A stretch of DNA of 64,000 nucleotides from Candidatus Limnocylindrales bacterium (lineage in GTDB: Bacteria > Patescibacteriota > Microgenomatia > Levybacterales > UBA12049), in the NCBI GenBank assembly GCA_035526025.1, contig DATLDE010000012.1, positions 20,222 to 84,221 of the forward strand, given 5' to 3'. A program made the translations under genes and the position numbers. Of the stretch, positions 9,099 to 64,000 are shown in pieces (position 1 is the first letter of the stretch; every line of letters begins with the position of its first letter). Under the pieces are notes generated by a model that saw nothing but the letters and a program-made list of their open reading frames with translations, was not told the DNA's origin and did no database searches.

Positions 9099-10607
9099 CT
9101 ATTTTAAATAGTTTTTATTCTTAACTTTTATCCAACACAAGCCGATTACAAATGCAAATAAGAGTTGACCTTGTTGGAGCGTCAGCCAGTAGTGATCAAA
9201 TATCCCAATTATTAAAATTGCAGAAAGAACTATTAACAAAGTGCTTCTGACTTCTGACTTCTGACTTCTGACTTTGTAAAAGGTTTTTGTTAAAAACCAT
9301 ATAAAAAGTCCCAGCCCGATAAGTCCTGTCTCTGCTGCTACGAGCAAAAATATATTATGAACCGGCTGAAGATAAGTGGAGGTGGTTAAAGGTTTCTGGA
9401 TCTCAGCAAGGCTTGGGAGAAATTGACCAAGCCCAACACCAATTAGGGGAGACTTCCCAATCATCTTAACTGAGGAATCTATAAGGGTTGTTCTTTGAAC
9501 AATCGCCTCATCATTTGTTTTTATATTTGTGAACCTTGATCCAATCGGACTGAATATAAAAATACTAATTATTCCGGATATAAAAATTAAGACCACAGCC
9601 ATCTTAATCTTGAATCTATCCTTTTTTAAGTTCCAAAACGCATCGTGCTCAATTCTACCGTACAGCTGAGCTTCTTCGTCCTTCTCCAGAGGAGGGATTA
9701 GGCGTGAAATCCAAAACCAAATTAAAACTACCATCCACGCTACAATCGCAATTCTGCTCATCGTAAGAAATAAAGCAATTGTGCCAAGCGCAAGTGTTGT
9801 TGCTTGAATTAAGAAGGAAGAATTAAGAATTATGAGATTAATCATTCGCTGGACAAGACTTGCTTCTTGCTTCTTGCTTCCTGCTTCTTTTTTTAACTTT
9901 TGAAACTTCAGTGAAAACAATACCAAGATCATCGCAACCAGCAGATAACCAGCCAAAACGTTTGGATGGGGGAGGGTACCATATGCTCTTAGCACAAGCT
10001 CCCCATTCAACGACGCATTCGCAATTCCTGGTGTGCCTGAATTAAAAGATCTCTCGCCCAAAAAATATAATAGGCGCCCAATTGATCCTTTATTCAAAAA
10101 TTGCGTTATCGCAATTACAGACTCAGTGATTGCCCCAAAGCTTAATGCAAAAATAATTTTTTGGAAAATATTTTTACTTACTATAAATTTGGCGCTGTAG
10201 TACGCTACAAAGGCCATTTCTAGCAATTTGAACAAACTGTAAAGACTTCCTAGTCTTCTTCCAGAAATTAGAATATTAATGACCAGAAACACAACGATAA
10301 ACATAAGGAATAAAAACAACTTAGATTTTTTTAAGTTTTTAGTTTTAAGCTTTAAGTTTGCTCTTGAACCTTTTCCAAATGCCCTAGGTAACCACAATAC
10401 AAAAATAAACAACACGAGAAGGTCGGTAAGATATACGGTGGGGGAGAGATAATCAATTCTGATGCCCCGTACATATGCAAAATCCGGCCAGAAGTGTTTG
10501 CCTAGCTGAGTTGGGATTAAAAAGACTAAGGAGTAAAAAAGAAATGATTCTATTCGAGAAGCTATTGTTGAATCTGGAATTAGAGGTTTGTAATTTTTAA
10601 TTTTCAA
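9099..10607 (-). CDS. O-antigen ligase/polymerase-like polytopic membrane protein (Wzy_C-like); start codon uncertain (TTG)
   Basis: 502 aa with ~12 TM helices and a central large loop, typical of O-antigen ligase-like proteins. The first in-frame start after the stop is TTG. Contains three 7-nt x4 tandem repeat tracts in K-rich loops. Confidence 0.45.
   Translation of the reverse strand: MKIKNYKPLIPDSTIASRIESFLFYSLVFLIPTQLGKHFWPDFAYVRGIRIDYLSPTVYLTDLLVLFIFVLWLPRAFGKGSRANLKLKTKNLKKSKLFLFLMFIVVFLVINILISGRRLGSLYSLFKLLEMAFVAYYSAKFIVSKNIFQKIIFALSFGAITESVIAITQFLNKGSIGRLLYFLGERSFNSGTPGIANASLNGELVLRAYGTLPHPNVLAGYLLVAMILVLFSLKFQKLKKEAGSKKQEASLVQRMINLIILNSSFLIQATTLALGTIALFLTMSRIAIVAWMVVLIWFWISRLIPPLEKDEEAQLYGRIEHDAFWNLKKDRFKIKMAVVLIFISGIISIFIFSPIGSRFTNIKTNDEAIVQRTTLIDSSVKMIGKSPLIGVGLGQFLPSLAEIQKPLTTSTYLQPVHNIFLLVAAETGLIGLGLFIWFLTKTFYKVRSQKSEVRSTLLIVLSAILIIGIFDHYWLTLQQGQLLFAFVIGLCWIKVKNKNYLK
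9244..9274. repeat. Heptanucleotide tandem repeat (CTTCTGA)x4 inside coding sequence (coding sense AAGTCAG x4)
   Basis: Four perfect units read directly from the sequence at 9244-9271. They encode KVRSQKSEVRS in a loop of the membrane protein. Confidence 0.9.
9861..9888. repeat. Heptanucleotide tandem repeat (TGCTTCT)x4, one variant unit, inside coding sequence
   Basis: Read directly from the sequence; encodes KKEAGSKKQEAS. Confidence 0.9.
10329..10356. repeat. Degenerate heptanucleotide tandem repeat (TTTTAAG-like)x4 inside coding sequence
   Basis: Units ttttaag / tttttag / ttttaag / ctttaag; encodes NLKLKTKNLKK. Confidence 0.8.
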
Positions 10608-10698
10608 TTTAAAATTTGAAATGAATATTCAATGTTTTAAATTTAAATTTTCAAGTATTTAAAGTTCAATGAAAATTGAAAATTTCGAATTGAAAATT
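10608..10698. repeat. AT-rich intergenic repeat region (TTGAAAAT/ATTTTCAA direct and inverted repeats)
   Basis: aattttcaatttaaaatttgaaat ... gaaaattgaaaatttcgaattgaaaatttt shows repeated ttgaaaatt motifs in both orientations between jag and the downstream membrane protein gene. Confidence 0.7.
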
Positions 10699-11172
10699 TT
10701 AAGCCTTTGGTTTGATAATAAGTACCCTGTCCCGTCCCGATCCTGCTGATTCAGATGTTACTTCTTCGTCATCTTGGAGTATCATGTGAACTATTCTTCT
10801 CTCCCATGACTTAAGAGATTCTACCACCTGCTCGCTATTTTCTGTCAGTGCTTTCTCACGCATTTGAGCTGCAAGTTTTTCCAGATACTCAGTTCTGTTT
10901 TTCTTATACCCATCAACTTCTATCGAAACTCGTATGAATTCGCCTAATTTTTTGGCAATAATAAGGGAGATGATGAGCTGAAGAGATTCAAGCCCTTCAC
11001 CATGATATCCGATAACCATACCGCTGTCTTTTGTGTCCATAAGGATGTCGAGGGTGTTTTCCTCATTCTGGGTAACTTCAAACGTACCTGTGATTTCAAG
11101 GAGCGAGAAAAGCTTTTCTGTAATTTCCTCAACCTTTTTTAGATCTTTTGCTGTTAGTTTTCCGTCCTTCAT
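10699..11172 (-). CDS. jag: Jag/KhpB-like KH + R3H domain RNA-binding protein (SpoIIIJ-associated protein)
   Basis: 157 aa, ends with an R3H-like region (VIGYHGEGLESLQLIISLI). It lies immediately downstream of yidC, as in the conserved yidC-jag arrangement. Confidence 0.75.
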   Translation of the reverse strand: MKDGKLTAKDLKKVEEITEKLFSLLEITGTFEVTQNEENTLDILMDTKDSGMVIGYHGEGLESLQLIISLIIAKKLGEFIRVSIEVDGYKKNRTEYLEKLAAQMREKALTENSEQVVESLKSWERRIVHMILQDDEEVTSESAGSGRDRVLIIKPKA

Positions 11173-11173
11173 A

Positions 11174-11983
11174 TTATTTTATTCCATCTCTCAGACTGCC
11201 CCAGCCACTGATTCTGTATTGCTGTATAATACCAAAAATTGTGAAAGTATTCCAGTACAAGGATAAACCGATAGGGAATCCAAATGAAAATACACCAATC
11301 ATGATTGGTAAAATATATAGCGTTTGGGACTGGAATGTGCTTGCAAAATCCATTTTTTTCTCTTCTTGTTTTGCAGGAAGATTGGTCTTCTTAGATTTCT
11401 CTTCTGGTGTTTTTGGAACTGCCATCATCTTTGATTGAATGAACTGAGACGCACCTGTAAGAACAGGTACCAGGATTATTGCAAACCCAACCACAGGTAG
11501 TAACTCACGCGGAGTCTTTCCAAGAGGCAAACCAAAAAAATTCTTATCCCACAGTTGCGAGATCTTTAATGAGTCTGTGTAGAGAAGCTTATTGATTTCT
11601 TCTATAGATTTTAAGTTCACAGCCTTCTGAAGAACTCCATAAAGTCCGAAAAAGATAGGGAGCTGAAGAAGAGCTGGAAGACATCCTGCTGCAGGATTTA
11701 GATTGTGCTCTTTGTAAAGAGCCATGGTAGCTGCTTGTTGTCCCTTCATGTCTCCCTTATGTTTTTCTTTAATTTTATTTAGATGAGGTGCAATGTCCTG
11801 CATCTTTTTTTGTGTTTTCATCTGAGAAGCTGTTAATGGATAAAGAAGTAAACGTATAGCTGCTGTAAGAGCAATTATTGAAAATCCCAAAGCATAGGGC
11901 ACATTGACTGAAACCAATCCCTGATAAATCGCAACAAGCGCGTTGGTAATGGGTTGTTGAACTAAAATTGTAAAAATATTCAT
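11174..11983 (-). CDS. yidC: YidC/Oxa1 family membrane protein insertase (short form)
   Basis: 269 aa with 5 TM, conserved YidC core, and a K-rich C-tail. Found in rnpA-yidD-yidC synteny. Confidence 0.85.
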   Translation of the reverse strand: MNIFTILVQQPITNALVAIYQGLVSVNVPYALGFSIIALTAAIRLLLYPLTASQMKTQKKMQDIAPHLNKIKEKHKGDMKGQQAATMALYKEHNLNPAAGCLPALLQLPIFFGLYGVLQKAVNLKSIEEINKLLYTDSLKISQLWDKNFFGLPLGKTPRELLPVVGFAIILVPVLTGASQFIQSKMMAVPKTPEEKSKKTNLPAKQEEKKMDFASTFQSQTLYILPIMIGVFSFGFPIGLSLYWNTFTIFGIIQQYRISGWGSLRDGIK

Positions 11984-12207
11984 ATACTGTATTTAAATTT
12001 GTTTAATTTCAAGGGCTGGCAGGAAATTATGCGCTTCAATGACAAAAAAACTCCCTTTGCGCTTCCTTGTTTTTTAATTACTGAAAGTGCATAGTCAGAA
12101 CAGGTTGGGGAATAACGGCAAAAACTTTTTACTCCAAATACTTGTTTTAATGCAGGAGAGATAAATAATTTATATATTAAGATTAATTTCAATAATAGAT
12201 ATTTCAT
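11980..12207 (-). CDS. yidD: Membrane protein insertion efficiency factor YidD
   Basis: 75 aa; ISPALKQVFGVKSFCRYSPTCSDYA matches the YidD signature (CRFxPTCSxY). Confidence 0.85.
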   Translation of the reverse strand: MKYLLLKLILIYKLFISPALKQVFGVKSFCRYSPTCSDYALSVIKKQGSAKGVFLSLKRIISCQPLKLNKFKYSI

Positions 12208-12533
12208 GTTAAAAGCTTTTTTTCAGTCAGAAGCTTGTGTAAATCTTTGAAGATTATCTCCCGCTTTTTTTCTATTATACCTTTTTCCAAGACAAAAAGC
12301 ATGTCATAACCCAATTTTATTTCATTAATCATTTCTTCTATGCATGACCTAAACACCCGCCTGGTCCTATTTCTGACAACTGCCCTTTTGTCCAGCGCTT
12401 TACGCACAACAAATCCAAAGCGAGATACTGGCAGATCATTTGGGGAGATTCTGATAGTAAAATCCGGAGTTTTAAAAAACGATGAGTTCCTGAATTTCTG
12501 CTTTGCGGGTAAACGATGGACTTTTTGTAACAT
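12204..12533 (-). CDS. rnpA: Ribonuclease P protein component
   Basis: 109 aa basic protein between rpmH and yidD; N-terminal LPAKQKFRNSSFFK is typical of RnpA. Confidence 0.7.
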   Translation of the reverse strand: MLQKVHRLPAKQKFRNSSFFKTPDFTIRISPNDLPVSRFGFVVRKALDKRAVVRNRTRRVFRSCIEEMINEIKLGYDMLFVLEKGIIEKKREIIFKDLHKLLTEKKLLT

Positions 12534-12679: not shown

Positions 12680-12790
12680 GAAGGTGAGTATACCATAACA
12701 ATTGACAGTTCACAATTAACAACTTGGGCATTAATTAAGGAGATATATTGTTAAAGGTTAAAAGTTAAATGTCAATTGCTAAACTGCCTC

Positions 12791-12820
12791 TTGACAAAGA
12801 GTTATCCACATTACTACACT
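12791..12820 (+). promoter_or_regulatory. dnaA promoter (TTGACA -35) with a consensus DnaA box TTATCCACA in the spacer (autoregulation site)
   Basis: TTGACA at 12791-12796, TTATCCACA at 12802-12810, TACACT -10-like at 12815-12820; dnaA ATG at 12854. Confidence 0.5.
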
Positions 12821-12853
12821 GGTAAACCTCGCCCGTATTTCTGCTTTTGCATT

Positions 12854-14218
12854 ATGGACATTCATTTAACTACTGTCTGGAACAGCGTATTGGCTGACAT
12901 AAAACCTCAGGTTTCTGATGGTAAATTTGGCACACTTCTTAAGCCAACGGAGTTATTGTCCTTAACTGATGGACTGGCGACTATAAGTGCGCCTTCTCCA
13001 ATAATTATCAATATGTTGAGGGAAAGATTTTTGCCTGAAATCAAAATACTGCTTGAGAAACACTCCAAGATAAAAGATATTTCTATTGTTTTTGTTCCCA
13101 GTGCCTATCAAAAAAAATCTAAAAATACTTCTACAGAGGAGCCTCCGCTTCTGTCAATTGACTCTGAACCAATTGCAAAAGCTCAAACCTCAATTGGTCA
13201 TTTGCCAAGAGTAAGGGCGGATTTTACATTTGAGAACTTTGCTGTATCAGGAAGTAACCAACTGGCTTTTGTGTCAAGCACGACGGTCGCCAAAAACCCT
13301 GGAAAATCGTATAATCCGCTTTTTATCTATGGCCCTGTTGGAGTTGGTAAAACCCATCTTATGAATGCAATAGCCAATGAGGTCTATTCCAATAATCCAA
13401 ATAGGAAAATTATTTATATAACAAGTGAGGAGTTCACAAATGAGGTGGTGGACGCGATCAGACACAATGAAACAGCCCAAATGAAACGACGTTTCCGTTC
13501 AGCACAACTTCTTCTAATAGACGATATACAATTTATAGAGGGTAAGGAAAAGGTTCAGGAAGAGCTTTTTCACACTTTTAATATCTTAATTGATGGTGAA
13601 TCACAAATTGTTCTTTCATCAGACAGGCCGCCTCATGAAATAAAAAAGCTTGAAAAAAGATTATCTTCTCGTTTTGCGGGGGGATTAAGCGTTGATGTTG
13701 GGCCACCTGATTTTGAACTTAAAACTGCAATTATTTTGATAAAAGCGAAAAAATATGGTCATGAAATCCCAATGGATGTAGCAAAGCTCTTGGCTGATAA
13801 CGCACAGGATACGCGTTCGCTTGAAGGACTTTTGCTCAGAATTATAACCCTCTCTACAACAACGGATAAAGAAATTACTTTGGAAATGGCTGAAAGAGCG
13901 ATAGGGGGTGTAACCCAGGAAAGAAGCAAGCATATTCACCCAGATGATGTTATCAATTATGTCTGTGAGTACTACAGAATAAAAACAACACAACTTAAAG
14001 GTCCAAAAAGAGATGCAGCACTTGTAAAAGCCCGGCATGTTGCAATGTACATATTGAAAAACAATCTCAAGCTTACTTTAAAAGATATCGGGGGTTTACT
14101 AGGAGGAAGGGACCACACAACAATTATGCATGGTGTGGAAAAAGTCGAGAAAAGTGTGAATAACAAGGGTGAGATCGTCGAGGATATAATGGGGATTACT
14201 AAATTATTAAGTGGATAA
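12854..14218 (+). CDS. dnaA: Chromosomal replication initiator protein DnaA
   Basis: Start placed at MDIHLTTVWNSVL (typical DnaA N-terminus) rather than the upstream ORF-track start. Carries Walker A GPVGVGKTHL, sensor LLIDDIQF, and the C-terminal DNA-binding helix DHTTIMHGVEKVE. Confidence 0.93.
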   Translation: MDIHLTTVWNSVLADIKPQVSDGKFGTLLKPTELLSLTDGLATISAPSPIIINMLRERFLPEIKILLEKHSKIKDISIVFVPSAYQKKSKNTSTEEPPLLSIDSEPIAKAQTSIGHLPRVRADFTFENFAVSGSNQLAFVSSTTVAKNPGKSYNPLFIYGPVGVGKTHLMNAIANEVYSNNPNRKIIYITSEEFTNEVVDAIRHNETAQMKRRFRSAQLLLIDDIQFIEGKEKVQEELFHTFNILIDGESQIVLSSDRPPHEIKKLEKRLSSRFAGGLSVDVGPPDFELKTAIILIKAKKYGHEIPMDVAKLLADNAQDTRSLEGLLLRIITLSTTTDKEITLEMAERAIGGVTQERSKHIHPDDVINYVCEYYRIKTTQLKGPKRDAALVKARHVAMYILKNNLKLTLKDIGGLLGGRDHTTIMHGVEKVEKSVNNKGEIVEDIMGITKLLSG

Positions 14219-33150: not shown

Positions 33151-34959
33151 TTATTTGCTGGCTTTTTTAAATATCATTACCGTTGGGCGGTCAAAAACCA
33201 TTGCAGTTTCTTCAAATCTAAATACAGGGTCGTTAAGGTAGGTGATGCGGCAGAAAATATCACATGGTGTTTGATATATCTTTTCCCATTGTTCGCTATT
33301 TATTAATTCGGAATAGAACAAATGTCCATTGGGGAATTTAGCCCTTTTTGGCAAACGGGAAATGAGAAGTCTTTGGCTTGGTAAAATCATATATTCTGTT
33401 GAGCTCAAATCTTCTTTGAGTTTTTGTTGCGTAAACTCAGGTGAGTTATTGTCCAGCTCATAAAAATTAAACATATTAATAGGATCGCTAAAATTAAAGG
33501 GTATCAGTCCCAAATCATAAGGTTCACTCATAACCTTAGAACTAAAAGGTATATTTAATTTTGCAAATTCACTAGCAATAACTCTTGTGTCCGGTCTTGC
33601 AAAAGCTGTTATAAAATATGAAACTCCGAACAGAATATTTAAACCTAAAAAAATACTAAATACTAAATACCTAATTCTTAATACTTGTTTCTTTCTATCC
33701 ACCAAATCCCATAAGTGCGCAAACGCAAGGGATAGCGTTAAGTACATGAATGGGAGCGCGGGTACTATGTAGCGGGTCCATTTGGCAAAAAGAACCGCTT
33801 GAGGTAAGAAAAGGGTTAAGAAATAAAAATTAAGAAGTAAGAGCGGCACGCTTTTGGTCTTAGCCGCTTGGAATAATAGATACAAGAATGCTGGCACAAA
33901 CATGGCTGTGAGTAGAGGATTTAAAATGAATGGGAAAATCCTATTAAATTGAAAAATAATCGGAATTGTGTCGTAAAACCCTTGGGTATAAAAAACAGGA
34001 AGTGAGCCGAGGGCGAGACCCGATTCATACTTCATGCTATTAAGAAATGATTGATAGTCAAAGTGGACAAAGGGATTGCTGATAAAATAAGTTGCTGTCG
34101 CAACGGCAGCAAAAAATAATATACGGATTATAGCTTTAGTAAAGCGTTTCATGTGGAGAGATAATGTGTTTTTTGGGTCATTATGTTTTGTTCGAAAAGT
34201 TGCATGGTAATATTGAAAATCCTTGTAAAGAATAGCAATAATTGGCAAAGGAAGGATCAGAATGTGAGAAATTTTTGTGGCAATAAGTATCCCGCTTATT
34301 ATCGCGAGAAGAAAAATATTGGATGCAGTAAGCTTCTCTATGCAGCGTAAGCAAAGCCAGAAGAGGAGTGTAGTGAAAAATGTCAGCCACATTTCAAACG
34401 TTCCGAAATGTGCGAATTGAATAAAGCCAACGCTAAATGCCGCAAAAAATGCAGCCAAAAGGCCAGTTTTCGTACCCTTCAAATTTTTACCGATAAGATA
34501 GAGCAAGGGGATAAGAAGTGTTGAAAAAAAAGCGGAGTAAACCCGACTTATGACTATTGCCTGCTCAAAAGATGATTTACAATCAGCAATTAACAATTGA
34601 CAGGACGTAAAAAAGTTATAAATAAGGCCAGAAAAATAAATTGCATAAATAGGCAAAGAACCATAAGCAAAAAAATTAGGATTCATTTGCTCTGGAAATC
34701 TTAACTGCGCAACGGCAGTTGCGATATTACGCTCATCAGGGTGGAAATAAAATGGAGCCCCCCAGTTGAGATTGTAAAATCTCAAACAAACACCGATTAA
34801 AATTAAAGCTAATAAGACAATGTTTATTATTCGAGCTTGTCGAGAACTTCTCGATTCGCTTTGCTCACTCGAAGAAGATGGCATAGACTTTATTGTAGTA
34901 GCTTTCAGCCTCGTTGACAAATGGCTTATAAGATGATATATTTCAGCCCATGGCATCAT
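33151..34959 (-). CDS. GT-C fold glycosyltransferase (family 39-like), paralog 3
   Basis: 602 aa with FHPDERNIA (DE motif in first loop), many TM, and a C-terminal soluble domain ending ...VMIFKK like paralog 2 (...VMIFKKR). Confidence 0.55.
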   Translation of the reverse strand: MMPWAEIYHLISHLSTRLKATTIKSMPSSSSEQSESRSSRQARIINIVLLALILIGVCLRFYNLNWGAPFYFHPDERNIATAVAQLRFPEQMNPNFFAYGSLPIYAIYFSGLIYNFFTSCQLLIADCKSSFEQAIVISRVYSAFFSTLLIPLLYLIGKNLKGTKTGLLAAFFAAFSVGFIQFAHFGTFEMWLTFFTTLLFWLCLRCIEKLTASNIFLLAIISGILIATKISHILILPLPIIAILYKDFQYYHATFRTKHNDPKNTLSLHMKRFTKAIIRILFFAAVATATYFISNPFVHFDYQSFLNSMKYESGLALGSLPVFYTQGFYDTIPIIFQFNRIFPFILNPLLTAMFVPAFLYLLFQAAKTKSVPLLLLNFYFLTLFLPQAVLFAKWTRYIVPALPFMYLTLSLAFAHLWDLVDRKKQVLRIRYLVFSIFLGLNILFGVSYFITAFARPDTRVIASEFAKLNIPFSSKVMSEPYDLGLIPFNFSDPINMFNFYELDNNSPEFTQQKLKEDLSSTEYMILPSQRLLISRLPKRAKFPNGHLFYSELINSEQWEKIYQTPCDIFCRITYLNDPVFRFEETAMVFDRPTVMIFKKASK

Positions 34960-35723
34960 CTATTGAAGCAATACTTGCATACCAACAAGCACAAGCAGAG
35001 CCTGACAGAGCTCAAGAGATTAGTCGGTTAAGAGATGTTATTAAGCGTGCAAAAGAAGATGGAGTGATCGATGAAAGCTTGCCCCCGACACGTGTAGCGA
35101 CAGCAAGGGAAGAAAGGGATAGGCTTACGCGGGAGGTTCAAGATCGCGCACGCGCAACCTATATGTTGTTAGAAGGTGTGAGAACTCCAACAAATGAGGA
35201 CATGGAGGCATTAAGAGGTGCTAGGGTTTTTGATATTGAACCTGTTTCGCTAGGGAGATTGGTAGAAGATCATCCAGAGCATTTTAAACGAGGTCAAATG
35301 GATATTCTTGATGGACGTAGACGTAGTGAGCTTAAGAATTATGTGCCCCCTGCAATGGCAGTTGTCATGAGATTTGATGTCCTAGATCATCCACGTGGTC
35401 AGGGTGAACAGGGTTTTCTAAAAGTTTTAAATGCAGTTGATGATTACTCAGAAAGTGAGATTAAGCCACGAAATGCTGATGCTCAGGCGGTTCTGTTGCC
35501 TGCATCAGCACTTGCTCAAATAGACATTAGCCTTGCGGCAGAAGGTAAGGCACTATTTTCCAGCCATTGCACGAGCGTATTAGATAATTATGGCGCTATG
35601 CGTATTGGGCGTGGTGGACCAGCGGGGAGATTGGTTGTAGGTGATTGGGTTGATGGGCTTGCGGGAGTCCATGTACGAATCACTCCTGGAATAGTATTTC
35701 CCAAAAATAGATCCTCCCAATAA
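34950..35723 (+). CDS. Hypothetical cytoplasmic Arg/Glu-rich protein encoded on a GC-rich (~46%) segment; probable horizontally acquired gene
   Basis: 257-aa ORF, the only long ORF in this segment. Compositionally distinct from flanking genes (R-rich rather than K-rich; GC well above the ~35% background). Confidence 0.45.
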   Translation: MASSIEAILAYQQAQAEPDRAQEISRLRDVIKRAKEDGVIDESLPPTRVATAREERDRLTREVQDRARATYMLLEGVRTPTNEDMEALRGARVFDIEPVSLGRLVEDHPEHFKRGQMDILDGRRRSELKNYVPPAMAVVMRFDVLDHPRGQGEQGFLKVLNAVDDYSESEIKPRNADAQAVLLPASALAQIDISLAAEGKALFSSHCTSVLDNYGAMRIGRGGPAGRLVVGDWVDGLAGVHVRITPGIVFPKNRSSQ

Positions 35724-35737
35724 TTCAGAGTTCTAAA

Positions 35738-36985
35738 TTATGAATTCTGAATTAGGTCTGCTACTTTTTCTCCCATCTCAATTGCGTAGTTGGTGCCGCG
35801 GTCCCATGGATAGACCATATCCATATTGGCGAGATAAACATTTTTAATTGGAGTTACAAATTCAGGTTTAATTCTTGAATAATTAATAGGAAAGACAGGT
35901 TGGGCGAAGTAGCCAAGGAACATTTCGTAGTCAATTATATTTTTTTTCAGATCATACTCAGGATTTATTCTTTGAAGATAGGGCGTGAACTTTTTGAGTA
36001 TTTCCTTTTTATCCATTTTCAAAAGCGGATGGTCAATCGGCAAATAATTTACAAGCCACATCAAATTTTGTCCACCGTAGTGCTTGGGATCTACAAAATT
36101 GGTATGCTGGACAACTCCGACAAAGGGAAATTCAGAATCACTGACATTTAGCCAGTAGCTTTTCTTAAGAAACTTTTCCTTTGTGACGAGAAGCATGTTA
36201 AAGGCATGAAGATGGGGGATTTGGTTGATTTTGTCTTTGTAGTGATCAGGCAAATCAGGGAACATTTTCACAAATACAGCAAGAGGCGTAGTGACAATTA
36301 CTTTGTCAAACTTAGATATTAATTCCGGATTAAATGATTTACCAAGATTTATTGTTGCACCGTTTTCCTTTATTTTCTCAGCCAATTTTTCAGATAGACT
36401 CTGGTATCCACCTCCCAGATAGCCCAAGGAAAAAGTCCTTTTGTAAATGCGTGCCCAGAACCAAGCCATGTTAACTGTTTCTGCAAAAGGGCCAAACTTA
36501 CCGTTTAGAAGTGGTTTCCATACTTTTTGCCACACCTCTTCTCCGTAGTATTTTCGGATCCAATCACGGGCCGTGGTTTTTTCAAATTTAACAGCTATTT
36601 GTGGGGGAATAGATTTTAGGACAAGGCTTACAAAGCCCAATCTGATTCTGGAGACAAACGAAAGCGGTTTGAGATTTAATATGTCAAAAGGTGAGTTTAG
36701 GGGATAGATTTTATTTTCCAAAAATACATCAGTCCTGGGTTTTTTGAAAAAAAGATCATCACCAAGGCCAACTTCTTTTATAAGATTTATTGCATAGCTA
36801 TCATTTGCAAACCAGTGGTGATAGTGTTTTTCCAAAGACCATTCCCAATTTTTATTTTTAAATCCTACCGCAAGCCCGCCAACTCTATTTTCTTTTTCAA
36901 AAACAGTGACGTCATGTCCTTTTTCTGTGAGCCTTAAAGCTGCCGTAAGGCCTGTAAAACCCGCTCCTATTATTGCAATTTTCAT
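35738..36985 (-). CDS. FAD-dependent oxidoreductase (amine-oxidase / UDP-galactopyranose-mutase-like superfamily)
   Basis: MKIAIIGAGFTGLTAALRL...VTVFEKENRVGGLA dinucleotide-binding motif; 415 aa. The UGM-like possibility rests on its position in the glycosylation cluster and is inference. Confidence 0.7.
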   Translation of the reverse strand: MKIAIIGAGFTGLTAALRLTEKGHDVTVFEKENRVGGLAVGFKNKNWEWSLEKHYHHWFANDSYAINLIKEVGLGDDLFFKKPRTDVFLENKIYPLNSPFDILNLKPLSFVSRIRLGFVSLVLKSIPPQIAVKFEKTTARDWIRKYYGEEVWQKVWKPLLNGKFGPFAETVNMAWFWARIYKRTFSLGYLGGGYQSLSEKLAEKIKENGATINLGKSFNPELISKFDKVIVTTPLAVFVKMFPDLPDHYKDKINQIPHLHAFNMLLVTKEKFLKKSYWLNVSDSEFPFVGVVQHTNFVDPKHYGGQNLMWLVNYLPIDHPLLKMDKKEILKKFTPYLQRINPEYDLKKNIIDYEMFLGYFAQPVFPINYSRIKPEFVTPIKNVYLANMDMVYPWDRGTNYAIEMGEKVADLIQNS

Positions 36986-52746: not shown

Positions 52747-53548
52747 GGAAAGTTCAAAGTTGAAAGTTCAAAGCGCAAAGCCAAAAAAGCTGCCAGTAAA
52801 GAGCAAAACTGTAGCAGCTAAAAAAACGCCAGTTGTTAAAAAAGAGGCAACAGTTAAAGCTGTCACGCCAGTTGTAAAAGCAAAGGTTGTTGAGAAAAAG
52901 GAAAACTCTCTCTCAATAAGTGTTTATGATCTTCAAGGAAAAGTGTCTGGTAAGGTATCTCTGAGCTCTGAGATCTTTGGACAACCGATAAATAAAAAAC
53001 TTCTCGCACAAGCTGTAAGAGTTTATCAGGCAAATAAAAGACAAGGAAATGCGTCAACAAAAACCAGGGGAGAAGTAGACGGATCAACACGCAAGATTTA
53101 TAGACAAAAAGGAACAGGAAATGCGCGTCACGGATCACTCAGAGCACCTATCTTTGTAAAGGGTGGAATAGTACATGGGCCAAAGCCACGGGATTTTAAT
53201 CTTGAACTCCCAAAAAAGATGAGAAGAAAAGCGCTTTTATCAGCACTTTCCGGAAAATTTGCAGATTCAGAGATAAGAGTTGTGTCAGGATTTGAAAAAA
53301 TTGATGCAAAGACAAAGGGATTTGCAGTAGTTCTTAAGAGCCTTACTCTTGATTCCAAAAAAGGCAAATTGTTACTTATTACACCAGACAGTTTTGAAAG
53401 CGTAAAAAGAGCTTCCGGAAATATAACTGGCGTAAATAGTACCTCAGCAAATAGGCTTAATGCTCTTGAGGTTTTAAGACACAAGAATTTATTGATTGCA
53501 AAAGAATCAATTGCTGAGATGGAGAAATTTTTATTAAAAAATGAATAA
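52739..53548 (+). CDS. rplD: 50S ribosomal protein L4 with ~65-aa Lys-rich N-terminal extension
   Basis: Start ATG at 52739 overlaps the rplC stop (ATGCCTAA), with SD AAGGAGGA upstream. L4 core from ...SVYDLQGK. Confidence 0.85.
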   Translation: MPKESSKLKVQSAKPKKLPVKSKTVAAKKTPVVKKEATVKAVTPVVKAKVVEKKENSLSISVYDLQGKVSGKVSLSSEIFGQPINKKLLAQAVRVYQANKRQGNASTKTRGEVDGSTRKIYRQKGTGNARHGSLRAPIFVKGGIVHGPKPRDFNLELPKKMRRKALLSALSGKFADSEIRVVSGFEKIDAKTKGFAVVLKSLTLDSKKGKLLLITPDSFESVKRASGNITGVNSTSANRLNALEVLRHKNLLIAKESIAEMEKFLLKNE

Positions 53549-58830: not shown

Positions 58831-58934
58831 CAGGTTTTGTTTAAACTTAGTAACCAGCCTTAATATCAAAGATTAAAAATCAAATATTAAAAATATTTTT
58901 GATCTTTTATATTTAATTTTTTATTTTTTAACAT

Positions 58935-60352: not shown

Positions 60353-60790
60353 ATGAACTTAAATAATCTTGAAAAAATAACAACTAAAAAGAAACGACGC
60401 GTAGGGCTAGGTCACGGTTCAGGACGTGGAAAAACCAGTGGACGGGGAACTAAAGGTCAAAAAGCCAGAGGAGATGTGCCGCTAGATTTTGAGGGAGGAG
60501 CGCTTCCTCTTATAAAGCGTCTTCCATTTCTCCGGGGAAAAGGAAAAAACAAAACATTTAGAAAAGATCCATATGTTATAAATGTTGGTCTTTTGAATAC
60601 GCTTCCAAAAAATTCAACTGTTGATATTGAAAGTCTTGCAAAACTAAGACTTGTAAATCTTGAGGACGCAACTAAAAACGGCGTTAAGATATTGGGAGAT
60701 GGGGAACTATCTGTAGCGCTGACTGTTAAGCTTCCTGCATCAAAAAGCGCTATTGAGAAAATTACAAAAGCAGGAGGAAGCGTAGTTTAG
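60353..60790 (+). CDS. rplO: 50S ribosomal protein L15 (follows S5 directly; no L30 gene)
   Basis: ...RRVGLGHGSGRGKTSGRGTKGQKAR... Confidence 0.9.
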   Translation: MNLNNLEKITTKKKRRVGLGHGSGRGKTSGRGTKGQKARGDVPLDFEGGALPLIKRLPFLRGKGKNKTFRKDPYVINVGLLNTLPKNSTVDIESLAKLRLVNLEDATKNGVKILGDGELSVALTVKLPASKSAIEKITKAGGSVV

Positions 60791-60867
60791 TAATTAGTAT
60801 TTTGTATTTAGTAATTTCTTGTTTTACTCTATACTAGATATTAGCTACGAAACATCTTTCCAAGAAC

Positions 60868-63388: not shown

Positions 63389-64000
63389 TAGATATTAAAA
63401 CAAAAAAAGAATTAGAAATAATGAAAACCGGAGGGCATATGCTTGCCGAAGTTCTAAATGATGTAATGAATGCAATAAAGCCTGGGGTTACGGAATTGGA
63501 ACTAGATCAGTTGGCTGAGAAGCTGATAAGGCAAAAAGGCGGTGAGCCGGGGTTTAAAAAAGTAAGAGGATATCATCACAGTATCTGCATGTCCACAAAT
63601 GATGTTGTGGTTCATGGAATTCCAGGGGGTTATGTAATCAAAGAAGGGGACGTGGTAGGGGTTGATTGCGGGGTATATTACAAAGGTTTTCATACGGATA
63701 TGGCTGAAACAATTCTCGTTTCAAGTCAAAAGTCAAAAGTCAAAAGTCAAAAGAATGTGGAGAAATTTTTAGAGGTTGGGAAGCAGGCGCATGAGGTGGG
63801 TGTAAAAGTAGCAGTAATAGGTAATAGAGTAGGTCATATTTCAAAAGCTATTCAGGATATTGTTGAGAGAGAATCAGGATACTCAGTCGTTCGCAGCCTG
63901 ATCGGTCATGGAGTGGGACGCGCGCTTCATGAGGATCCAGAAGTGCCAGGCTATTTGGTAGGTAGAATTGAAAAAACACCACTACTTCAGGAAGGTATGA
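63385..64000 (+). CDS. map: Methionine aminopeptidase type I, partial (C-terminus beyond window)
   Basis: MIDIKTKKELEIMKTGGHMLAEVL...GYHHSICMSTNDVVVHGIP...DCGVYYKGFHTDMAET; contains an in-frame heptamer repeat insertion. Confidence 0.85.
   Translation, partial: MIDIKTKKELEIMKTGGHMLAEVLNDVMNAIKPGVTELELDQLAEKLIRQKGGEPGFKKVRGYHHSICMSTNDVVVHGIPGGYVIKEGDVVGVDCGVYYKGFHTDMAETILVSSQKSKVKSQKNVEKFLEVGKQAHEVGVKVAVIGNRVGHISKAIQDIVERESGYSVVRSLIGHGVGRALHEDPEVPGYLVGRIEKTPLLQEGM
63723..63753 (+). repeat. Heptanucleotide tandem repeat (AAGTCAA)x4 + AAG inside map coding sequence
   Basis: Read directly from the sequence; encodes SQKSKVKSQK, inserted where MAPs normally have a short conserved loop. Confidence 0.9.

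Follow-up and report, generated by a model that had tools for sequence, protein, structure and literature searches.

Repeats with a unit of 7 nucleotides (nt) are over-represented among the simple sequence repeats (SSRs) of many bacteria, and slippage related to the polymerase footprint has been put forward as a hypothesis for them (Rehm et al. 2015, PMC4692102). The described examples include GGGAATC arrays in Xanthomonas, which mostly contain four units, GGGGA(T/C)T repeats in Nostoc and Anabaena (Mrazek 2007, as summarized in PMC4692102), and tandem heptanucleotides in Calothrix (PMC4692102). A coding array, (AAGACTC)n, is located in the neuO gene of Escherichia coli K1, where it contains 3 to 53 units and drives phase variation, and the gene is OFF in 65.6% of the genomes (PMC13001214). 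Contingency tracts in genes for lipopolysaccharide (LPS) and surface structures are known from Haemophilus, Neisseria, and Campylobacter (PMC3315296). Here, we describe arrays with a period of 7 nt in a gene for an O-antigen-ligase-like membrane protein, located in a stretch of 64,000 nt, below referred to as the window, from Candidatus Limnocylindrales bacterium (Patescibacteriota; Microgenomatia; Levybacterales; UBA12049; assembly GCA_035526025.1, contig DATLDE010000012.1, positions 20,222 to 84,221). These arrays probably represent a lineage-wide class of heptamer microsatellite modules that would be born by slippage at persistent permissive sites and kept in frame by selection. Both an excess of heptameric SSRs and coding heptanucleotide switches are already known, and our search of the literature on heptanucleotide repeats in the Candidate Phyla Radiation (CPR), Patescibacteria, or Microgenomates retrieved nothing specific.

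The gene and its tracts, as called by Tandem Repeats Finder (TRF), are as follows:

9099..10607, minus strand: Wzy_C / O-antigen-ligase-like polytopic membrane protein gene, 502 amino acids, TTG start, which carries the tracts
9244..9274, minus strand: tract 1, CTTCTGA x4.4, 100% matches; (TCAGAAG)x4.4 on the coding strand
9859..9889, minus strand: tract 2, CTTGCTT x4.4, 91% matches; (AAGAAGC)x4.4 on the coding strand with one mismatch
10329..10359, minus strand: tract 3, TTTTAAG x4.4, 83% matches; (AAACTTA)-like on the coding strand
9806..9841, minus strand: a degenerate fourth tract beside tract 2, GAATTAA x5.0, 75% matches; (AATTCTT)-like on the coding strand

Tracts 1, 2, and 3 were each 31 nt long, corresponding to 4.4 units. 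Three units of 7 nt equal 21 nt or seven codons, so that all three phases are read and the encoded peptides have a period of 7 amino acids. In the AlphaFold2 model, the peptide encoded by tract 1, VRSQKSEVRS (residues ~445 to 455), formed a turn between helices 419-447 and 451-470, while those encoded by tract 2, KKEAGSKKQEA (residues ~240 to 250), and tract 3, NLKLKTKNLK (residues ~83 to 93), formed loops between helices 215-236 and 248-282 and between helices 60-83 and 92-115, respectively. All three were short inter-helix turns, rich in Lys and Arg, with low values of the predicted local distance difference test. The fourth tract encoded NLIILNSSFLI within a membrane helix.

An earlier note on this DNA had described three tracts of exactly four heptamers in this open reading frame (ORF), quoted the peptides KVRSQKSEVRS, KKEAGSKKQEAS, and NLKLKTKNLKK as Lys-rich loops, and reasoned that the gain or loss of one unit would shift the frame. 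The three tracts were all recovered by TRF, the peptides were all present in the translation as Lys-rich loops, and the ORF was truncated when changes of +/-1-2 units were simulated at every tract. The near-constant number of units was also borne out, but not the count of exactly four, as 31 nt correspond to 4.4 units and this length is a lineage-wide mode that is also seen in non-coding DNA. Similarly, the tracts do recur three times in one ORF but are not unique to it, given the arrays in genes for methionine aminopeptidase (MetAP), a PMT_2-family protein, and ribosomal protein L4 and in intergenic regions of the same window.

The ORF matched PF04932 (Wzy_C) over residues 271 to 436 with a score of 64.7 bits (curated cut-off, 31.7 bits; E=1e-17). 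The AlphaFold2 model had a predicted template modelling score of 0.81, and its only significant fold match in PDB was WaaL (7TPG_B, E=1.1e-4, probability 1.0, TM-score 0.42 to 0.50), so a WaaL-type polytopic fold is predicted for the protein. Patescibacteria are not generally known to possess LPS, and "O-antigen ligase" should therefore be read as a family label only, which does not imply ligase activity on lipid A-core as opposed to polymerase or O-oligosaccharyltransferase activity; we nevertheless refer to the gene as the ligase gene below. By the positive-inside rule, and by alternation with two conserved loops that were taken as extracytoplasmic, the three tract loops should be cytoplasmic; if this topology is correct, a role in antigenic diversification is unlikely.

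Period-7 tracts are not peculiar to the ligase gene. Other arrays in the window were as follows:

63723..63753, plus strand: array in the MetAP gene, (AAGTCAA)x4.4, perfect (TRF)
33651..33685, minus strand: array in a PMT_2-family glycosyltransferase gene, period 7 x5.0, 82%, encoding VLRIRYLVFSI (TRF, Pfam, translation)
52749..52773, plus strand: array at the N-terminal extension of ribosomal protein L4, (AAAGTTC)x3.6, encoding SSKLKVQS (TRF; L4 named by eye from the translation)
60787..60816, no strand: intergenic array between two ORFs of the ribosomal operon, (TTAGTAA)x4.3 (TRF, ORF map)
35722-35753 and 58894-58930: similar intergenic arrays (TRF, ORF map)

The MetAP array encoded SQKSKVKSQK, which represents a loop insertion of 6 amino acids relative to MetAPs of solved structure, according to an alignment with PDB sequences. 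On the coding strand, its unit differed from that of tract 1 by a single base (TCAAAAG versus TCAGAAG). It was also noted that the MetAP unit occurred in the genes for ValRS in L023 and glutamate dehydrogenase in L016, and in the N-loop of the ligase in L063 (L numbers denote the loci described below). No Rfam family was matched anywhere in the window.

To place the tracts in the lineage, we collected 80 loci in a profile scan of GTDB genomes and another 80 in a metagenome scan, which together with the window gave 161 loci, 151 of which were non-redundant. Most of the GTDB loci carried the label Candidatus Levybacteria/Levyibacteriota, and some were assigned to Shapirobacteria, Gottesmanbacteria, or "Patescibacteria group". 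An exact-protein look-up and the first metagenome scan yielded no near-identical strain of the window, and the best ligase homologues were 58% to 59% identical. In the window and the first 80 loci (1.43 Mb), TRF identified 96 arrays with period 7 and 57 with period 14, as against 5, 15, and 12 arrays for the neighbouring periods 6, 8, and 9, respectively. The total number of period-7 arrays identified by TRF was 144 in 2.03 Mb. Across ~1.9 Mb of related Levybacteria/Microgenomates DNA, no other repeat period was as frequent as period 7.

Chance low-complexity sequence or an assembly artefact can be regarded as effectively refuted as an explanation. AT-rich DNA (38.6% GC) does favour short A/T-rich repeats. 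However, in our own scan with a threshold of at least 3.8 copies, the arrays had almost exclusively period 7, with three in the window, and no array of that size appeared in 30 Markov-1 (approximately dinucleotide-preserving) shuffles. Moreover, about 150 assemblies that were obtained independently, in different studies and with different assemblers, showed the same architecture, almost always in frame.

The lengths of perfect period-7 runs were bimodal, with a geometric decay at 14 to 18 nt, a near-empty interval at 21 to 23 nt, and a second mode at 24 to 39 nt with a peak at 31 nt; no other period was bimodal. About three quarters of the arrays were located within ORFs (99 arrays in long ORFs versus 26 that were clearly non-coding), and the mode at 31 to 32 nt was common to both groups. 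Arrays of 28 to 35 nt made up 71% of the coding arrays, mostly with 4 to 5 units, and arrays shorter than 28 nt represented 12% of the coding but 31% of the non-coding arrays (p=0.033), which may reflect a weak frame filter on array length. Those longer than ~40 nt consisted of two ~31-nt modules that differed in their units. The seemingly constant number of four units is thus a property of the lineage, slightly sharpened by a reading-frame filter, and not specific to the ligase.

We considered whether one original unit plus three units (21 nt, in frame) could be the sole cause of the constant number. This was rejected because the non-coding arrays share the mode at 31 to 32 nt, and also because arrays in RuvC genes add no length, the MetAP tract adds 6 rather than 7 amino acids, and C-terminal loops of the ligase with an array are only 3 to 5 amino acids longer than those without. 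We also observed rare perfect arrays with periods 8, 9, 11, and 12 whose total length was 31 to 34 nt, as in the heptamer modules:

L014:8417-8450, L137:771-804, L054:13158-13188, and L072:13722-13752: arrays with periods 8/9/11/12

These few cases hint that total length rather than copy number is fixed.

The 132 arrays in the loci fell into 68 unit classes, mostly with 1 to 2 G/C per unit. Short arrays of plant/telomere-type heptamers were also noted in Levybacteria contigs, (CCCTAAA)x3.6 at L047:6638-6662, located directly at the end of the ligase gene, and (TTAGGGT)x2.6 at L161:19263-19280; they are probably just two more unit variants. Copying of arrays between sites within one genome was rejected, since unit similarity of at least 6/7 was observed in 14.8% of the pairs from the same locus and 9.7% of those from different loci, which is a weak difference. 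A role of the tracts as the two arms of a hairpin, or of an inversion switch, was likewise rejected: the RNA fold of tracts 2 and 4 had a z-score of -1.2, and reverse-complement similarity of units within loci was barely above the background between loci. Base composition probably accounts for the pairs in L108 and L112 that look like reverse complements.

The arrays resemble the long heptameric SSRs described previously in that period 7 is in excess over other periods and over shuffled sequences and is favoured over its neighbours, with a mode of about four units. As in that class, arrays keep their genomic sites in related genomes while length and sequence vary. Heptamers of the cyanobacterial type are also known as STRR sequences, a name not used in the 2015 study. 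The known heptameric SSRs are, however, G-rich and essentially intergenic, and any one genome uses a single unit or a few units specific to it, whereas the arrays studied here are AT-rich, diverse in their units, and mostly located in ORFs.

The earlier note had interpreted the geometry of the tracts as that of a phase-variation switch in a surface-polysaccharide gene. Under such a programmed switch, heptamer slippage at any of the three tracts would toggle the envelope glycan ligase and diversify the surface against phages or hosts. Since the unit length is not divisible by 3 and the tracts are located inside an ORF, a one-unit change truncates the protein, and the ligase family is 12- to 30-fold enriched in arrays, also compared with other polytopic membrane proteins. 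There is also a precedent in neuO, with which the tracts share a 7-nt unit in the ORF of an enzyme that modifies a surface glycan, frame-dependent translation, and the equivalence of three units to one heptad of 7 amino acids. Furthermore, there is one natural allele of the expected kind. In L065, the ligase gene was split between two frames at the C-terminal array (AGAATCA x3.6), and the addition of exactly one unit restored an ORF of 476 amino acids that included the motif DHYFLTLQQGQ. Since this array is one unit short, natural loss of a unit by slippage does take place, provided that the one case known is not due to faulty assembly.

L065 was, however, the only one of the 151 non-redundant loci in which the ligase gene was in two frames, and its array was the only one out of frame among ~99 coding arrays. 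The narrow range of copy numbers (mostly 4 to 5) and the single OFF allele contrast with the wide range and frequent OFF state of neuO, which moreover has a single tract at the 5' end as opposed to three internal tracts of 4.4 units. Near-identical assemblies differed by in-frame changes only, and no out-of-frame difference in unit number was observed between them. Tracts 2 and 3 are already imperfect, which lowers slippage. Three other OFF candidates (L026 19014, L047 6638, and L070 9417) were arrays at gene ends or in intergenic regions, with units that apparently contain stops, and were judged not to be frameshifts without locus-by-locus inspection. The truncated cluster member P0125 (260 amino acids) was cut by the end of the contig and does not represent a frameshift.

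Classical contingency tracts consist of tetra- or pentanucleotides or homopolymers, are long and hypervariable, and are located near the 5' end of non-essential surface genes only. The tracts in the ligase gene resemble them as frameshift-prone tandem repeats in an envelope polysaccharide gene, with a unit inside the ORF that is not a multiple of 3. Unlike them, they are short, spread along the gene, and part of a genome-wide class; wide unit variation with many OFF alleles was not seen, and the repeats were not confined to dispensable genes for surface or host-interaction functions.

Arrays of the same type were present in essential genes. ValRS genes contained arrays at two recurrent sites, one of which was within the helix preceding LLHPFMPF. 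In RuvC, the β-hairpin QSSKFKVQSF was the exact translation of (CAAAGTT)n in many lineages and was of the same length as in orthologues without an array, and variants of this peptide were also seen. This suggests that an array of some age has been evolving at its original site in an essential enzyme:

L026:17923-17956, L054:14423-14455, L080:19173-19202, and other RuvC genes: RuvC arrays

Coding arrays outside the ligase were also identified in the genes for TsaD, Fmt, YidC, glutamate dehydrogenase, and DUF4012 proteins. Because the essential genes (MetAP, ValRS, RuvC, TsaD, Fmt, YidC, and L4) cannot be switched off, the arrays in them are not contingency switches. A function of the tracts as a phase-variation switch is not supported, given that out-of-frame alleles are rare, that essential genes contain such arrays, and that the ~31-nt mode extends to non-coding DNA, and their location in short Lys-rich inter-helix loops, which should face the cytoplasm rather than form surface epitopes, also speaks against the reading as a surface switch. 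We consider programmed phase variation to be quite improbable; most likely, the tracts are latent frameshift sites, that is, tolerated and self-perpetuating mutational features.

The pattern in orthologues was studied by an alignment of 27 homologues and by DNA surveys of the loci. Arrays in ligase orthologues were located at relative positions 0.16 to 0.23, 0.48 to 0.57, and 0.87 to 0.90, with many different units. A loop homologous to that of tract 2, KEARSKSQES, was found in L001/P0002, while (AAATCAA)n and other arrays were found at the loop of tract 3, and the unit class of the fourth tract, AAGAATT, was present at the equivalent site in L001 and L037 as well as in ValRS genes. The units in the C-terminal loop included (AATGGCA)n, (ATTTACG)n, (AATTTCA)n, and (AGAATCA)n, encoding NGKWQMA, LRFTIYD, FQISNFK, and RIKNQES, respectively. 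A strong array was present in this loop in ~14 of 59 orthologues, and the remainder had a unique loop that was shorter by 3 to 5 amino acids.

The units turned over quickly at these sites. In three genomes with ligase genes that were 85% to 92% identical in nucleotide sequence, the N-terminal loop contained no array, (ATTTCCA)x4.6, or (TGGAGAA)x4, and the C-terminal loop contained (ATTGGAA)x4.4 or (CATTATC)x4, with a length difference of 3 nt that was in frame. Two genomes with 91% identity contained (AAATACC)x3.9 and (TCTTAAA)x4.4 at one intergenic spot with flanks that were ~95% identical. In strains with 98% to 99% identity, 9 to 10 of the 19 variable sites in the ligase gene fell in the three array regions, which cover ~10% of the gene length, without any change in length. 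The possibility named in the earlier note as one that would refute its reading, that orthologues would carry the tracts as fixed low-complexity sequence without length polymorphism, thus held for their position in the same loops and for their nearly constant length, but not for the sequence, which turned over and showed in-frame length polymorphism among strains. It was also noted that the two genomes with 91% identity differed by inserted small ORFs (L023:1-1173 and L025:19720-20020), one of which we take, by eye, to be GIY-YIG-nuclease-like, by heptamer arrays of the CTAGTWA type that directly precede start codons, and by an indel of 21 nt, or three units, at L023:4391.

These comparisons also bear on selection at the protein level, under which Lys/Arg-rich, heptad-periodic helical linkers would satisfy the positive-inside rule and DNA periodicity would be the cheapest route to them. 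The three tracts in the window all encode K/R-rich inter-helix turns, and loop length is nearly constant across orthologues. In addition, the unit of tract 1 was present at the equivalent site in L161, the ligase of which is 51% identical, with 27 consecutive identical nt between flanks that were ~70% to 75% identical. Nevertheless, the arrays of orthologues at these loops often encode hydrophobic or neutral peptides, such as ISYQLSV and three of the four C-terminal peptides listed above (LRFTIYD, FQISNFK, and NGKWQMA), many orthologues have no array, and arrays in non-coding DNA share the period and size of the coding ones. We therefore find this explanation very unlikely.

In relatives, some of the arrays were interrupted by GC-rich palindromic inserts of 20 to 50 nt, located mid-array with about two units on each side (for example TCCCGCGGAGCGGGATCCTGCTCTGCAGGA and CTCGCCTCGCGGCGAAGCGGGCA). 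The stems of the inserts resembled TCCCGC...GCGGGA, and some contained mini-hairpins of the GCGAAGC type. They were identified in the ligase orthologues of L132, L142, L084, L030, L035, L093, L115, and L037, and in the ValRS gene of L025, with the following locations for inserts of 23 to 48 nt:

L132 compared with L071: insert in the ligase mid-loop
L162:1750-1800 compared with L163: insert
L025:18082-18130: insert
L142 at ~1255 and L084 at ~352, in coordinates of the extracted ligase genes: inserts

Presence and absence differed between sequences with 99% to 99.9% identity; thus, L132 contained 30 nt more than L071, to which it is 99.9% identical, and L162 contained 45 nt more than L163, which corresponded to a hairpin plus about three extra heptamers. 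All of the inserts were in frame, and none of the tracts in the window had an adjacent hairpin. Rickettsia palindromic elements are in-frame palindromic insertions in coding genes, and Nostoc contains very small dispersed hairpin repeats. The inserts in the relatives, as distinct from the window tracts, are similar to these as GC-rich, strain-polymorphic hairpins located in frame in protein loops, but they are far shorter than the Rickettsia elements and specifically nested inside heptamer arrays. To the extent of our literature search, neither AT-rich, unit-diverse coding heptamer modules of ~31 nt nor array-nested hairpins have been described in Patescibacteria.

The hairpins either accumulate at shared permissive loops or are mechanistically linked to the renewal of arrays, and they may represent a very small mobile or hairpin element that targets or renews arrays. 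In the strongest form of such a link, the arrays would be by-products of, or landing pads for, the hairpins. Insertion or excision of a hairpin, or stalling of replication at it, would create or renew the heptamers on both sides (about 2+2 units), and four units would be left once the hairpin is lost. This would account for the four-unit mode in coding and non-coding DNA, and it is in line with the mid-array inserts in many orthologues and in the ValRS gene of L025 and with their polymorphism between nearly identical sequences. Yet most arrays, including all of those in the window, have no hairpin nearby, neither a transposase nor a target-site duplication was identified, the change may have been either an insertion or a deletion, and the hairpins may simply gather at permissive loops. 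An origin of the arrays from hairpins accordingly has little probability in our assessment.

The explanation that we favour, as the probable one, is that of modules that are born by slippage and persist at sites where they are tolerated. A strongly favoured register of 7 nt in replication misalignment would amplify a local heptamer and, where an array already stands, re-homogenize or replace it. In coding sequences, an array would persist only if its units are free of stop codons and its net length change keeps the frame, and then only at places where any sequence is acceptable to the protein. In the ligase, these would be the three short, positively charged inter-helix loops. Arrays would thereby stay at orthologous positions while their sequences turn over quickly.

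Several observations weigh against this explanation. The first is the density of arrays in the ligase orthologues, which contained 0.40 to 0.44 period-7 arrays per kb compared with 0.038 elsewhere, while other ORFs with at least four predicted membrane helices contained 2 arrays in 158 kb. Such a density goes beyond what passive tolerance accounts for, and by a rough estimate the loops, with ~45 arrays in ~12 kb, are denser than intergenic DNA, with ~27 non-coding arrays in ~150 kb. As the orthologues share ancestry, much of the enrichment can be due to the inheritance of a few old, self-renewing array sites, and arrays in ValRS and RuvC recur likewise. The length distribution is a second difficulty, since stepwise slippage predicts many non-coding arrays of three units, yet few were found, and the ~31-nt mode suggests, albeit from few cases, a one-step birth or a length ruler. 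The explanation does not account for the preference for period 7 either. Furthermore, the conservation of tract 1 beyond that of its flanks between the window and L161 seems odd for a neutral loop, and the nesting of hairpins inside arrays suggests that another process acts at these sites.

A further reading is a lineage-specific process of the Microgenomates that installs and renews quantized heptamer modules of ~31 nt at fixed hot spots, essential genes included, with units exchanged between close relatives while the frame is kept, and that makes them nests for GC-rich mini-hairpins; in the origin-proximal ligase gene, where the arrays are concentrated 12- to 30-fold, it could double as a three-site switch. 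We consider this conceivable but rather unlikely.

The genomic neighbourhood of the ligase gene was conserved across Levybacteria, with the origin-proximal gene order dnaA | rnpA-yidD-yidC-jag-ligase-DUF4012. In the window, dnaA is located on the plus strand and rnpA, yidD, yidC, and jag diverge from it on the minus strand (12776-14218 and 10699-12533), and the window looks as if it spans the chromosomal origin region. Between jag/khpB and the ligase gene, we identified the following feature:

10586..10700, minus strand: heptamer-rich AT leader, TRF period 7 x13.7, 61% matches, also with periods of 22 and 47 nt

The leader contained imperfect inverted repeats and may be a promoter or terminator region. 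Its degenerate heptamers extended into the first codons of the ligase gene, where MKIKNYK corresponds to (AAAATTA)n, and several ligase orthologues began with the same peptide. The TTG given above is thus only a putative start codon of the ligase ORF.

The interest of these observations lies in the phenomenon across the lineage and not in a phase-variation reading of one gene. As a rule, selection removes coding microsatellites whose unit length is not divisible by 3, or they are restricted to contingency genes. In this uncultivated lineage, they are found at conserved positions in dozens of genes, among them those for an aminoacyl-tRNA synthetase, RuvC, and MetAP, and they turn over faster than the remainder of the gene. 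In practical terms, gene calls from metagenomes will suffer from artefacts in frame and length owing to the tracts and the hairpins within them. If general, the arrays would represent a distinct mode of protein-loop evolution in Patescibacteria, as well as a strong mutational signature, specific to one period, from which an unusual replisome or repair system might be read. They would also endow an envelope glycan gene of host-attached organisms with latent sites of frameshift. If the lineage process is real, it would constitute a system of coding microsatellites or micro-mobile elements that perpetuate themselves and are of a new kind.

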